Below are positions 15,162-24,820 of a stretch of 64,000 nt of DNA, piece by piece. The stretch is from NCBI RefSeq assembly GCF_024223415.1, contig NZ_CP100500.1; one strand, written 5' to 3'. A program made the position numbers and the translations under genes. The notes beneath the pieces are model-generated. The model worked only from the letters and a program-made list of their open reading frames with translations. It was not told the DNA's origin and made no database searches. How positions within the stretch are numbered: the first letter of the stretch is position 1; every line of letters begins with the position of its first letter. This DNA comes from Escherichia coli. GTDB lineage: Bacteria > Pseudomonadota > Gammaproteobacteria > Enterobacterales > Enterobacteriaceae.

Positions 15162-15179
15162 TGTGAGAGATCTCTTACA
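15162..15179. promoter_or_regulatory. UvrY/GacA-type upstream activating palindrome for csrB
   Basis: TGTGAGAGATCTCTTACA, 18-bp near-perfect palindrome about 180 bp upstream of the csrB 5' end. Confidence 0.75.
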
Positions 15180-15352
15180 GACTCTGTAGGAGATCGCCAG
15201 GAAATAAGCGAATACTTAAAAAGATAAGAATCGTTGTTTTCATTTAAAAACAACATGTTGCTTGTTAATTCCTAACTGTCATATGAAATTTTCCTTAAGG
15301 CATTGTCTGTAAGCGCCTTGTAAGACTTCGCGAAAAAGACGATTCTATCTTC

Positions 15353-15718
15353 GTCGACAGGGAGTCAGACAACGAAGTGAACATCAGGATGATGACACTT
15401 CTGAAGGACACACCAGGATGGTGTTTCAGGGAAAGGCTTCTGGATGAAGCGAAGAGGATGACGCAGGACGCGTTAAAGGACACCTCCAGGATGGAGAATG
15501 AGAACCGGTCAGGATGATTCGGTGGGTCAGGAAGGCCAGGGACACTTCAGGATGAAGTATCACATCGGGGTGGTGTGAGCAGGAAGCAATAGTTCAGGAT
15601 GAACGATTGGCCGCAAGGCCAGAGGAAAAGTTGTCAAGGATGAGCAGGGAGCAACAAATGTAGCTGGAATGCTGCGAAACGAACCGGGAGCACTGTGAAT
15701 ACAGTGCTCCCTTTTTTT
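15353..15718 (+). ncRNA. csrB: CsrB small RNA (CsrA-sequestering)
   Basis: About 366 nt with roughly 20 GGA-containing motifs (CAGGATG, AGGA, AGGGA) spaced every 10 to 25 nt; begins GTCGACAGGGAGTCAGACAACGAAG; ends in an intrinsic terminator; no plausible ORF. Confidence 0.92.
15686..15718 (+). terminator. csrB intrinsic terminator
   Basis: GGGAGCACTGT-gaat-ACAGTGCTCCC (11-bp stem) followed by TTTTTTT. Confidence 0.88.
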
Positions 15719-15763
15719 ATTCCTGCTATCCTTCGCGGCAGTTTTTCTTATTGAGGTTGCTTT

Positions 15764-16093
15764 ATGACCACTCATGACCGCGTTCGTCTCCAGTTGCAGG
15801 CGCTTGAAGCGTTACTGCGTGAACATCAGCACTGGCGAAACGATGAACCCCAGCCGCATCAATTTAATAGTACCCAACCGTTCTTTATGGACACCATGGA
15901 ACCACTGGAGTGGTTGCAGTGGGTGCTGATCCCGCGAATGCACGATTTGTTAAATAACAACCAGCCGTTACCGGGCGCTTTTGCTGTTGCACCCTATTAT
16001 GAAATGGCGCTGGCGACGGACCATCCGCAACGCGCGCTTATTCTGGCTGAGTTGGAAAAACTGGATGCTCTTTTTGCGGATGATGCGAGCTAA
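15764..16093 (+). CDS. yqcC: DUF446-family protein YqcC
   Basis: 109-aa ORF; stop overlaps truC start (ATGA junction at 16093). Confidence 0.85.
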   Translation: MTTHDRVRLQLQALEALLREHQHWRNDEPQPHQFNSTQPFFMDTMEPLEWLQWVLIPRMHDLLNNNQPLPGAFAVAPYYEMALATDHPQRALILAELEKLDALFADDAS

Positions 16094-16875
16094 TGCTGGA
16101 AATACTCTATCAGGATGAATGGCTGGTTGCGGTAAATAAACCCTCCGGCTGGCTGGTTCACCGTAGCTGGCTGGATCGCGACGAGAAAGTAGTGGTCATG
16201 CAAACCGTGCGTGACCAGATAGGACAGCATGTTTTTACTGCTCATCGTCTGGACCGACCAACTTCTGGTGTGTTGTTGATGGGATTATCCAGCGAGGCCG
16301 GACGGCTGCTGGCACAACAGTTTGAACAGCACCAAATCCAGAAACGTTACCATGCGATTGTGCGCGGCTGGTTGATGGAAGAAGCGGTGCTGGATTATCC
16401 ACTGGTGGAAGAACTGGACAAAATCGCTGATAAATTTGCCCGCGAAGATAAAGGCCCGCAGCCAGCAGTGACGCATTATCGCGGTCTGGCGACCGTAGAA
16501 ATGCCGGTAGCGACCGGACGTTACCCGACCACGCGCTACGGCCTGGTGGAACTGGAGCCGAAAACCGGACGCAAACATCAGCTTCGCCGACATCTTGCCC
16601 ATTTGCGTCATCCGATTATTGGCGATAGCAAACATGGCGATTTACGCCAGAATCGCAGCGGTGCTGAGCATTTTGGTCTTCAGCGGTTAATGCTGCATGC
16701 CAGTCAGTTGTCATTGACGCATCCTTTTACTGGCGAGCCGCTGACTATTCACGCGGGCCTGGACGACACCTGGATGCAGGCGTTATCACAATTTGGCTGG
16801 CGCGGTCTGCTTCCTGAAAATGAAAGGGTTGAGTTCAGTGCGCCATCGGGTCAGGATGGAGAGATAAGTTCCTAA
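16093..16875 (+). CDS. truC: tRNA pseudouridine(65) synthase
   Basis: 260-aa ORF with RluA-family HRLDRPTSG catalytic motif. Confidence 0.92.
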
Positions 16876-16892
16876 TCCAGGGAGAAAACGGT

Positions 16893-21832: not shown

Positions 21833-21845
21833 GACAGAAAACCAA

Positions 21846-21870
21846 AACCGGCTCTATCTGGAGCCGGTTT
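21846..21870. terminator. Hairpin terminator between convergent gudD and barA
   Basis: AACCGGCTC-tatctg-GAGCCGGTT, 9-bp stem flanked by A and T runs on both sides. Confidence 0.6.
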
Positions 21871-21955
21871 GAGACTGATGCTAAACGCAAAATAGCCTGT
21901 TGTGCTATGTATCAGGTCTACATCATTTTTTAATTCATTGAATTTAATTGGTTTT

Positions 21956-21993
21956 GTAGGCCGGATAAGGCGTTAACGCCGCATCCGGCATAA
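21956..21993. repeat. REP (repetitive extragenic palindromic) element
   Basis: TGTAGGCCGGATAAGGCGTTAACGCCGCATCCGGCA, canonical REP-like palindrome. Confidence 0.7.
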
Positions 21994-22063
21994 ACACAGG
22001 CACTTTGTCACCAATCTGAAACCAGCGTCATAAAAAGCCGATTGCTACTCGACAAGACGTCCG

Positions 22064-24820
22064 TTACCCGAGAATTTTGCTGGCTTCGCGCGCGACATTA
22101 TCCATCTCGTCCAACAGTTCCAGCAGCTCCGGCTCCAAATCTTCTTCTTTAGTATCGCTACGTAGCTGTTGTTCGATCAGTTGGCAGAGATTCTTCATAC
22201 GCGGCACACCGCTATAGCCGCAACTGCCATGCAGTTTATGAATCAAATCAACCAGGCCTTCCGGGTTTTCTCCAACCAGCTGTTCCTCAACTTTGTTGCG
22301 AACTTCAGGCAGGAAATCGAGTAACATTTGCAGCATATCGCGCGCTAAATCGGTTTTTCCTGCTGCCTGGCGTAGTGCCAGTTGCCAGTCGAGGGTCGCA
22401 TTCGGGTTCACCACAATTTCGTTGACTTCAGGCGTCACGACGCGAGACGAAATACCGCTGCCAGGCTTGTAGCGCAACAGCAAATTATGCAATCGCTCTT
22501 CTTCAATCGGTTTCGCCAGATAATCGCTCATCCCTGCGCCAAGCAGCTTCTCTTTTTGCCCGGCCATTGCATGCGCCGTTACCGCGATAACCGGCGTTTG
22601 TTGCTGATGGGGGAGCTGGTGGATGAGTTCGCAGGCCCGAATGCCATCCATGTCAGGCATTTGAATATCCATTAAGATCAAATCGAACGGCATCTGTTTC
22701 GCCCGTTCAACCGCCTGATGCCCGCTATCGCAAAGTTCCACATGTTGCACCATATCTTCCAGCAATGCGCCGATAAGTTTCAGGTTAGCGGGGTTGTCAT
22801 CAACCGCCATGACTGTCATTGGCAGCTTACTTTCATCGGTTACAGGCAAAAGCGTGTTTTGTTTGTGATGACAAAATTCCGTCAGGGCAGGCAACAGGCG
22901 CGTAGGTGTTAATGGTTTCAGCAGACACGCGCCGATACCATCTTGCTTAAGTTTTTCAGCATTGACTTGTGCATGGCAAGGAAGTGCCAGCATCAGGAAA
23001 TCGGTCATCGATACCGCTTTCGCTAATCGCTCATGTTGCATTGTTAGCGGCTCGCGGAAGGTCACCGCGATGCCTAACAACATCATGTCGTAATGCGCGG
23101 GAGGCAGCGCGGAGAACGTTGGGCTATAAACCACTTCCAGCGGCGTTTCACTTAAAATATCCAGCGTGCATTGCGCTGCTGCGGAGTTTGGTTCGACATA
23201 GGCCAGGCGCTTACCGGCGAGGCACTGGGTGGATGGCCCTTCAATAATAATGTTCGGGTTCAGATCGAGATTAATGTGGAACCAGAAAGTTGAACCGCGA
23301 TTCGGCTGGCTATGGAACGAAATATCGCCGCCCATTTCATTAACCAGTTTTTGTGTAATCACCAGCCCCAGCCCGGTGCCACCATGACGGCGGGAAATAC
23401 TGGCATCAGCCTGTCGGAAGGCCTGGAATAAGCGCGATTGATCACGTTCAGGAATACCAATGCCGGTATCCCGAATCTGCACTTCAATCTGCACTTTGGT
23501 ATTACTCAGCGCACGTTTTTCTACCAGAATATCAATGTTGCCATTCTCGGTGAATTTAATTGCATTCCCCACCAGGTTAGTGATGATTTGCTGTAATCGC
23601 AGTGGGTCGCCGATCACGTTATCAGGCACGTCGCTCTTAATATTGAGCGTCAGTTCCAGCCCTTTATCGTGAGAAGAATGAGCCAGCAGGGTAACGACTT
23701 CATCCAGCGTGCTGCGTAGTGGGAATGGAATACTTTCCAGAATCAGCTTACCTGCTTCCAGTTTCGAGAAGTCGAGAACATCATTAATAATTGCCAGCAA
23801 ATTATTTGCCGAACGTTCAATCGTATTCAGGTGATCGCGCTGCGTTGGTGTTAATTCTGTTTTCAGCGTCAGGCGGGTAAAGCCAATAACACCATTCAGT
23901 GGTGTACGCAGCTCGTGTGACATATTTGCCAGAAACTCGGATTTAATACGCGCCGCTTCCTGGGCGCGCTTTTTCGCCAGATCCAACTCAACGTTCTGAA
24001 TTTCCATCTGCTCCAGCGTTTCACGCAGATCGGACGTCGCCTGGTCGATATTGTGCTGCATCTCTTCGTGATAAGCAGCCAGCGACATTGCCATCGAGTT
24101 GATACCGTTTTTCAGCATATCCAGCTCGCCGAGCATAAATCCTTCCACCCGGCTGTCGAGTTGCCCGCGACGGATGCGGTCGACGGTATTCACCATGTTG
24201 CGAATCGGACCGGTTACATCGCGCATTAAGCGCCAGCCAAAAATAAGCGCAATACCGATACAAAACAGCATCATCACGCTGGAAATAAAGATCTCTTTAT
24301 ATTGCTGCAAGCGAACCGATTTAAGATCCAGCTCAAGCGCAATATATCCCAACATATTTTGACTATTTTTGGCATCTCTACTGGGCGATTCGTCGGGGGA
24401 GTAACTCTCAGAAATAATCGGCGTGCGGAGGATCATAATATCGCCGTCACGAGTGACAGTGAGCTGGCGAGGAAACGGCACGTTGCTGCCGAGCTGCATT
24501 GATGAGGGATCAAGATGAAAATTGGAGGTGACAAAGAGTCGGTTATTTTCATCATAAACCGAAATCGCGCGAACAATATCGGAATGGCGACGATGCAGTA
24601 CGCTTATTAACTGACCGATAGATTCGCGATTTTGCAGGCTCATGCCATATTCAGTAGAAACTGCAAGCGGCTCAATAATGCTGGCACCGGCATCTTCCAG
24701 TTGACGCTGCAAGTCGTTATAGCGATGCACGACGAAAAAGATACTCAGCAATAAACCAATAAGGACGGTCGGTGCCAGGATCAGAATCATCATGCGTGCG
24801 CGCAGGCTGTAGTTGGTCAT
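22064..24820 (-). CDS. barA: Hybrid sensor histidine kinase BarA (HAMP-HisKA-HATPase-REC-HPt)
   Basis: 918-aa ORF; H-box SHELRTPLN, receiver-domain signature, C-terminal HPt region. Confidence 0.95.

Follow-up and report, generated by a model that had tools for sequence, protein, structure and literature searches.

The window analysed in this study is a 64,000-nucleotide stretch of Escherichia coli DNA (contig NZ_CP100500.1). The genes syd, csrB, yqcC, truC, yqcA, gudPXD, barA, rlmD and relA follow one another in it in the order known from K-12. Positions 15000-15800 are 100% identical to E. coli strain SCU-316, and complete E. coli genomes carry the csrB region in 5425 of 5426 cases. The features discussed below are the following; the half-site-like element and the hexamer pair were read directly from the sequence.

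15162-15179, no strand assigned: UvrY box TGTGAGAGATCTCTTACA, an 18-bp near-perfect inverted repeat, phospho-UvrY site and csrB upstream activating sequence, centred at -183/-182
15185-15197, plus strand: left-half-site-like element TGTAGGAGATCGC, 5 bp 3' of the inverted repeat
15248-15263, no strand assigned: IHF-like site region AAACAACATGTTGCTT, a variant allele that mismatches WATCARNNNNTTR once per strand
15308-15313 (-45) and 15319-15324 (-34), plus strand: two TGTAAG hexamers, 11 bp apart
15341-15348, plus strand: GATTCTAT block, -12 to -5, conserved across Enterobacteriaceae
15353-15721, plus strand: csrB gene, a 369-nt sRNA with 22 GGA motifs that sequesters CsrA (Rfam RF00018 and published +1)
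15686-15718, plus strand: csrB intrinsic terminator from a terminator scan, with an 11-bp stem (15686-15711), 7 G-C pairs, a 4-nt loop and then TTTTTTT
15764-16093, 16093-16875 and 16893-17342, plus strand: yqcC, truC and yqcA, intervening genes outside the circuit (NCBIfam, RefSeq annotation)
17777-19129, 19131-20471 and 20492-21832, plus strand: gudP, gudX and gudD, intervening genes outside the circuit (NCBIfam, RefSeq annotation)
22064-24820, minus strand: barA, an intact 918-aa ORF for the tripartite hybrid sensor kinase that phosphorylates UvrY

Elsewhere in the window, an unannotated 1.6-kb gap between queE and ygcE was found by repeat search to hold CRISPR arrays; Tandem Repeats Finder returned nothing from the same gap.

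The CsrB sRNA that had been proposed here from the bare sequence, with a covariance search suggested as the check, was recovered as a full-length match to Rfam RF00018 on the plus strand at 15362-15721, covering model positions 1-356 of 356 with 384 bits (gathering score 71) and E = 1e-111. The transcription start at 15353 was adopted from the published position of the box (PMC4682653) and not re-derived. The RNA folds with a minimum free energy z-score of -4.5, and its intrinsic terminator corresponds to the last hairpin of the Rfam model. All five features listed by Kulkarni et al. 2006 (PMC1488887) for CsrA-regulating sRNAs, namely an intergenic position, GGA motifs, a Rho-independent terminator, GGA in loops or unpaired regions and a conserved 18-bp upstream site, are present at csrB. 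The gene lies between the stop codon of syd at 15142 and the start codon of yqcC at 15764. In the RefSeq records examined, the NCBI pipeline leaves both csrB and csrC without annotation and places a pseudogene over csrC; a search with RNA models is therefore needed to find such RNAs.

The Rfam span contains 21 GGA motifs and the 369-nt RNA 22, against about 20 in the preliminary description, and AGGA occurs 14 times in about 360 nt. No other 360-nt stretch of the window is as dense in GGA on either strand, the plus strand averaging about 5 per 360 nt. The placement of these motifs in loops had been left to be counted. Nineteen of the 22 are predicted to be unpaired (minimum unpaired probability of at least 0.5), compared with 26% of all trinucleotides (Fisher p = 1.3e-9), so that the motifs are not mostly paired. 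The mean predicted unpaired probability is 0.81 for GGA motifs and 0.35 for the remaining CsrB nucleotides. The exceptions are one motif fully paired in the terminator stem, one fully paired in the 3' arm of a hairpin stem, and a partly paired one at 15406. The consensus structure of the Rfam model assigns 11 GGA to hairpin loops, 8 to linkers and 2 to stems. CsrA binding and sequestration are experimentally established for the K-12 CsrB RNA, which differs from the window RNA at three positions.

The box TGTGAGAGATCTCTTACA had been placed about 180 bp upstream of CsrB and was found with its end 182 nt before the Rfam start and 173 nt before the published +1. It occurs once in the window; the reverse strand matches at this very site with 2 mismatches, as the sequence is nearly palindromic. 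The box fits the TGTRAGN6CTYACA-type 18-bp inverted repeat found far upstream of csr/rsm promoters. That the inverted repeat arose by chance and does not act in regulation has in its favour solely that short palindromes can arise randomly. This explanation has next to no probability: shuffles of the window give an expectation of 0.02 matches, the box is identical in K-12 and eight other E. coli strains with a far more variable spacer downstream, and boxes of this kind are coupled with GGA-rich sRNAs throughout the Gammaproteobacteria. In K-12, the identical sequence at the identical position is bound by phospho-UvrY according to DNase I footprinting, ChIP-exo and ChIP-PCR, and this binding is BarA-dependent (Zere et al. 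2015, PMC4682653). A chance origin is effectively refuted by these published footprint and ChIP-exo results. The regulatory box and the RNA are intact and could be assigned from the letters as first described, with positions accurate to the base.

Further conserved elements were found between the box and the start site. Zere et al. described TGTAGGAGA as partly conserved (PMC4682653), and TGTRRGAGATCGC is conserved in our alignment of 24 Enterobacterales promoters, where the search pattern did not select for it. The pair of TGTAAG hexamers at 15308..15324 is invariant in nine E. coli strains, and the second hexamer overlaps a -35-like TTGTAA (15318-15323); CTTGTAAGAC is conserved in the Enterobacteriaceae in the promoter alignment. 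Both hexamers are inside the promoter-proximal ChIP-exo crosslinking region from -56 to +25 (PMC4682653) and may be UvrY half-sites. The GATTCTAT block is probably the -10 region of the csrB promoter. A simple sigma-70 consensus scan of 15100-15800 detected no promoter-like site, which would fit a weak, activator-dependent promoter. No -10/-35 assignment was forced, and we used the published start site and report the conserved blocks.

The spacer that holds the IHF-like site is the sole variable part of the csrB control region within E. coli. Over 661 bp, the window and K-12 differ at 9 positions, 6 of which are clustered within 15236-15278, and the two overlapping exact WATCARNNNNTTR matches of K-12 have no exact counterpart in the window. 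Given the absence of an exact consensus match, the IHF dependence of csrB could differ here from that in K-12, where deletion of IHF, which has a role at csrB, lowers CsrB about 10-fold (PMC4682653). A further step would be to suppose that csrB activation is weakened or rewired in this strain, its IHF site lacking the consensus and its circuit no longer equivalent to that of K-12. The lost matches, the clustered differences, the effect of IHF deletion in K-12 and the rarity of the exact 111-bp allele (10 of 5279 genomes) would all suit such a change. We nevertheless regard it as unlikely. The A at 15250 and the C at 15261 are common to the sampled O157 and ST131 strains, and alleles within 5% of that in the window occur in 1,771 of 5,279 genomes, about one third. 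Several further genera of the Enterobacteriaceae also have the A-for-T state (AAAACA) at the corresponding position, with the CA and TT(A/G) positions kept. The diversity of the spacer amounts to 0.11 variable sites per site in nine strains, a figure inflated by the choice of these strains for their spread in the spacer segment itself, compared with 0.025 in the adjacent syd coding sequence; it is about that of unconstrained sites. We infer that the variant IHF site still works. The cluster at 15236-15278 was also considered as a mutational hotspot or a sign of selection, which is unsupported since 0.11 per site is near the unconstrained level.

Two forms of the site were observed, a double exact consensus in K-12 and W and a non-consensus AAACAA...GCTT in the sampled O157 and ST131 strains and the window. 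It is a doubtful proposal that these are distinct natural alleles that set different IHF dependence and hence lineage-specific CsrB output. If so, E. coli lineages would differ in CsrB output and therefore in free CsrA, in a circuit that is otherwise invariant.

The sensor kinase gene was found where it had been placed, 6.3 kb from csrB on the opposite strand, its near end being 6,342 nt from the csrB 3' end. BarA matches the NCBIfam equivalog NF008318 with 1624 bits against a cutoff of 890 over residues 1-917 of 918, and all six expected Pfam domains are present: sCache_4 (31-177), HAMP (198-248), HisKA (293-357), HATPase_c (404-518), Response_reg (670-780) and Hpt (828-910). The gene carries the name barA in the annotations of the identical strain and of K-12. 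The statement that box, RNA and kinase lie within 7 kb is right from edge to edge, with the start of the box and the near end of barA 6.9 kb apart, but the whole ensemble spans 9,659 bp. No uvrY is present among the genes annotated for window positions 4,500-64,000 in K-12 or the matching strain.

Comparison across species separates the box and sRNA from the neighbouring kinase gene. Across 120 gammaproteobacterial loci, the box core nearly always adjoins a GGA-rich sRNA; among the loci from other species, 93 of 107 box cores are accompanied by 12 or more GGA within 100-500 nt on one side, the mean of the background being 4.3. Rfam CsrB calls were obtained beside the box in Escherichia, Enterobacter, Dickeya, Serratia, Yersinia, Edwardsiella, Photobacterium and Vibrio. 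Linkage of barA to the box was seen solely in the Enterobacteriaceae and in Pantoea (Erwiniaceae). A convergent barA downstream of csrB, 2.3 to 10 kb from the box, is shared by E. coli, E. albertii, Enterobacter sp. Ag1, Cedecea, Enterobacter asburiae and Pantoea stewartii, which is what one would expect if the closeness were functional and selected for joint inheritance, transfer or expression of sensor and target. This is very improbable, however, as barA was not found within the 7.4-11.6 kb downstream of the box in Dickeya (Pectobacteriaceae), two Rahnella (Yersiniaceae), Hafnia (Hafniaceae), two Shewanella, three Vibrio species and Enterovibrio. These loci without linked barA retain the box and the sRNA, and most of them also yqcC-truC. 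The spacing between csrB and barA varies with the presence or absence of gudPXD, which E. albertii lacks between yqcA and barA; UvrY, the link between BarA and csrB, is encoded elsewhere; and Vibrionaceae carry several csrB copies at scattered loci. Functional co-localisation was rejected because the linkage is missing in loci of these lineages with 7.4-11.6 kb of flank. The 6.3-kb closeness looks like inherited gene order and not a part of the mechanism, and it can be discounted as lineage-limited.

The window almost certainly contains a native E. coli csrB locus that works as described for K-12, and no result spoke against this reading. This analysis shows what the RNA, the box and barA are, that they are intact and where they lie, together with the predicted GGA accessibility and the conservation of box with sRNA; UvrY binding, the BarA requirement, IHF dependence and CsrA sequestration come from the literature. 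In the proposed mechanism, BarA would autophosphorylate on short-chain carboxylates and hand the phosphate to UvrY, and phospho-UvrY would bind the inverted repeat at 15162-15179. IHF would bend the DNA at the A/T-rich site near 15248-15263 and aid activation of the weak csrB promoter, about 180 bp downstream. About 19 accessible GGA in the hairpin loops and single-stranded linkers of CsrB would then bind and sequester CsrA dimers, by which target mRNAs would be freed of CsrA control. BarA-UvrY-CsrB-CsrA is a textbook global regulatory circuit, and the copy in the window is standard and already known; the preliminary description had likewise called it a known circuit. What is added here is the breadth of the box-sRNA pairing (120 loci), the lineage-limited linkage of barA and the non-consensus IHF-like site.

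The closest known system is the csrB locus of K-12, to which the window is 98.8% identical over 801 bp. The 18-bp box and its position (-183/-182) are the same in both, and so are the TGTAGGAGA element and the core promoter; both also have syd and yqcC as flanking genes, an RNA of equal length and an equal number of GGA motifs. The window differs by three SNPs in the CsrB RNA, C to A at 15404 (CAGGA to AAGGA), A to T at 15659 and G to A at 15692, the last turning a terminator-stem G-U pair into A-U, and by the 6 SNPs in the IHF-site spacer with which both exact consensus matches are lost.

The csrC gene of E. coli, which is located outside the window, belongs to the same clan as csrB (CL00106) and also has a far-upstream UvrY site starting with TGTGAGA. 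Comparison of the palindrome with csrC, as had been suggested, shows that the K-12 site consists of the left half alone (TGTGAGACATTGCCGATA) plus a TGTAAG half-site 16 bp upstream, as in PMC4682653. At about 250 nt the csrC RNA is the shorter of the two, and an IHF site is not reported for csrC (PMC4682653).

More distant counterparts are GacS/GacA-RsmX/Y/Z of Pseudomonas and CsrB1-3 of the Vibrionaceae. In contrast to E. coli, none of the Vibrio and Shewanella loci checked yielded a sensor gene close to the sRNA. The same AGATCT-cored box was found beside GGA-rich regions in Vibrio, Photobacterium, Shewanella, Halomonadaceae and Alcanivorax. The sRNAs of the Pseudomonas and Vibrionaceae systems are often shorter or multi-copy compared with E. 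coli csrB, and these systems share with it a tripartite kinase of the BarA type, a regulator of the FixJ/NarL type, a box of the TGTAAGN6CTTACA type lying upstream and a decoy sRNA rich in GGA.

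Searched over its full length against Rfam, the window has two matches in total. The one to RF00018 (CsrB), at 15362-15721 on the plus strand, spans model positions 1-356 of 356 with 384 bits (E = 1e-111), where the gathering score is 71, so the CsrB proposed in the preliminary description is a full-length covariance-model match far above threshold. Since the inverted repeat of csrB was published as centred at -183/-182 (Zere et al. 2015, PMC4682653), the +1 is placed at 15353 (GTCGACAGGGAGTC...). The csrB and barA genes are delimited as follows.

15353-15721, plus strand: csrB RNA, 369 nt, from the Rfam match and the published box position
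22064-24820, minus strand: barA, 918-aa ORF

The 369-nt RNA contains 22 GGA motifs, 21 of them in the Rfam span, where about 20 had been claimed. The background on the plus strand of the window is about 5 per 360 nt, and csrB is the GGA-densest 360-nt stretch of the window when both strands are considered. Eleven motifs fall in hairpin loops, eight in single-stranded linkers and two in stems of the Rfam consensus structure. Location of the motifs in predicted loops had been named beforehand as a test. Base-pair probabilities predicted with ViennaRNA give a mean unpaired probability of 0.81 for GGA nucleotides and 0.35 for the remaining CsrB, and 19 of the 22 motifs, compared with 26% of all trinucleotides, have a predicted minimum unpaired probability of at least 0.5 (Fisher p = 1.3e-9); the motifs are thus predicted to be mostly unpaired rather than mainly paired. 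The minimum free energy is -118 kcal/mol (z-score -4.5), and the 3' end carries a G+C-rich 11-bp hairpin followed by seven T, an intrinsic terminator. Three SNPs, at 15404, 15659 and 15692, distinguish the RNA from that of K-12, the last changing a G-U pair of the terminator stem in K-12 to an A-U pair in the window.

The UvrY-type palindrome claimed upstream of CsrB is present as the exact 18-mer TGTGAGAGATCTCTTACA, found once in the window at 15162-15179, with 0.02 matches expected by chance from shuffled sequence. A second-strand match with two mismatches is the same site, because the box is a near-perfect palindrome. Both the box and, 5 bp further downstream, the TGTAGGAGA element have the same sequence as in K-12 and match the region covered by the published UvrY footprint and ChIP-exo mapping; in vivo binding by UvrY requires BarA (Zere et al., PMC4682653). 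Two TGTAAG hexamers with a spacing of 11 bp, at -45 and -34, lie inside the promoter-proximal crosslinking region published for csrB, the second overlapping a -35-like TTGTAA; they may be UvrY half-sites. An alignment of 24 Enterobacterales promoters, in which box conservation was not counted as the search itself selected for the box, revealed further conserved blocks: TGTRRGAGATCGC, the IHF-like AAA[T/A]CA...TTA, CTTGTAAGAC and GATTCTAT. A consensus sigma-70 scan detected no promoter at csrB, which fits a weak, activator-dependent promoter.

Of 5426 complete E. coli genomes, 5425 match the region 15000-15800, which has 100% identity to E. coli SCU-316 and 98.8% to K-12 MG1655. Across 661 bp, nine differences separate the window from K-12, six of them in the spacer with the IHF site (15236-15278), which reads AAACAACATGTTG in the window and AATCAAAATGTTG in K-12; exact matches to WATCARNNNNTTR are two and overlapping in K-12 and none in the window. 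The exact 111-bp allele of the window occurs in 10 of 5279 E. coli genomes, and 66% of the 5279 diverge from it by 5-10%. The IHF-like site of the window is probably still functional and the spacer probably weakly constrained, because the key substitutions are common to sampled O157 and ST131 strains, the A-for-T state is frequent in other genera, and spacer diversity among nine strains, picked for their spread in this same segment, is about the level expected at unconstrained sites.

The barA ORF matches the BarA equivalog model of NCBIfam over residues 1-917 (1624 bits, cutoff 890) with its Pfam domains in the expected order: sCache_4, HAMP, HisKA, HATPase_c, Response_reg and Hpt. The barA and csrB genes are on opposite strands, with 6,342 nt separating the stop-codon end of barA from the 3' end of csrB, in agreement with the 6.3 kb given in the preliminary description, whose coordinates are all correct; "within 7 kb" holds when measured edge to edge, but box, csrB and barA together span 9.66 kb. 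The gene order in the RefSeq records of K-12 and SCU-316 is queF, syd, [csrB], yqcC, truC, yqcA, gudP, gudX, gudD, barA (convergent), rlmD and relA, and NCBIfam supports every gene name in this block. No response-regulator gene is annotated in these records for window positions 4,500-64,000; in K-12, uvrY belongs to the uvrY-uvrC operon at a distant position on the chromosome.

Scanning one genome per species for TGTRAGAGATCTCTYACA gave at least 120 loci. The matches listed come from Enterobacterales, Vibrionaceae, Shewanella, Halomonadaceae, Alcanivorax and Kangiella, besides one Porphyromonadaceae contig that has no GGA-rich region flanking the box and is probably a chance match. Among the matches listed, complete flanks are available for 107 boxes, of which 93 carry 12 or more GGA in 400 nt on one side (100-500 nt from the box; background mean 4.3, 99.9th percentile 13), and most of those under 12 have 8-11. 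Rfam called CsrB adjoining the box at eleven loci in eight genera. GGA-rich box flanks in Shewanella, Vreelandella, Alcanivorax and Kangiella matched no Rfam family at the gathering threshold, so that current models cover such Csr/Rsm-type sRNAs poorly. Because GGA-rich flanks and CsrB calls recur across taxa, the coupling of box and sRNA is ancient; this coupling and the syd neighbourhood were already described by Kulkarni et al. 2006 (PMC1488887). In asymmetric boxes, TGTGAG...CTTACA is directed towards the sRNA 57 times and away from it 14 times (loci L010-L129 of the scan, species kinship uncorrected).

Convergent barA downstream of the box was found at these distances.

+2.3 kb: E. albertii, gudPXD absent
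+4.6 kb: Enterobacter sp. Ag1 and Cedecea
+7.9 kb: Enterobacter asburiae
+10.0 kb: Pantoea stewartii

No barA was found within 7.4-11.6 kb of the box in Dickeya, two Rahnella, Hafnia, two Shewanella, three Vibrio and Enterovibrio. The csrB-barA spacing varies with the gud operon, and since barA is near the box only in some lineages, the linkage is a lineage-limited gene order outside the mechanism. The E. albertii locus (L011, 2598-7700) has no gudPXD between yqcA and barA, so the gud operon is a variable insert in an otherwise conserved block.

Neither the K-12 nor the SCU-316 RefSeq record annotates csrB; csrC is likewise unannotated by the NCBI annotation pipeline in the RefSeq records examined, and the K-12 record has a frameshifted "hypothetical protein" pseudogene called over csrC (8555-8721 of locus L002). 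About 22 of 5425 genomes are without a contiguous csrB-region match. In an E. coli EcN laboratory culture (NZ_CM187577.1, 1259-2428 of locus L131) the promoter or 5' end of csrB carries an insertion of an IS3-like ISEc52, and the alignment to the window breaks at about window position 15370. Other features of the window are listed here.

38062-38760: CRISPR array, 12 repeats, 61-bp period, E. coli type I-E repeat GTTCCCCGCGCCAGCGGGGATAAACCG
39261-39350: CRISPR array, 2 repeats of the same type
55315-55472: sok of a hok/sok-type toxin-antitoxin (Rfam, 110 bits)
about 55400-55552: Hok/Gef gene (RefSeq annotation)

Both arrays sit in the 1.6 kb separating queE from ygcE, an interval that is empty in the RefSeq feature table. 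Within 55315-64000, hok/sok is followed by a type I-E cas operon that looks complete from cas3 to cas1e and extends past the window end. The segment between queE and eno (33296-36878) encodes one LemA-family protein and three TPM-domain proteins; the K-12 gene at this place is probably ygcG.

The checks on RNA, box and barA support the earlier interpretation, and the locus is confirmed as the BarA-UvrY-CsrB circuit, already known, in the form that is standard for E. coli. The palindrome was also compared with the region upstream of csrC, which in K-12 (RF00084, 279 bits, between yihA and yihI) has TGTGAGACATTGCCGATA about 160 bp upstream, keeping only the left palindrome half, and TGTAAG 16 bp farther upstream, a layout that agrees with the published description (Zere et al., PMC4682653). 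The csrB box is a near-full palindrome, whereas the csrC site consists of the left half plus the distal TGTAAG.
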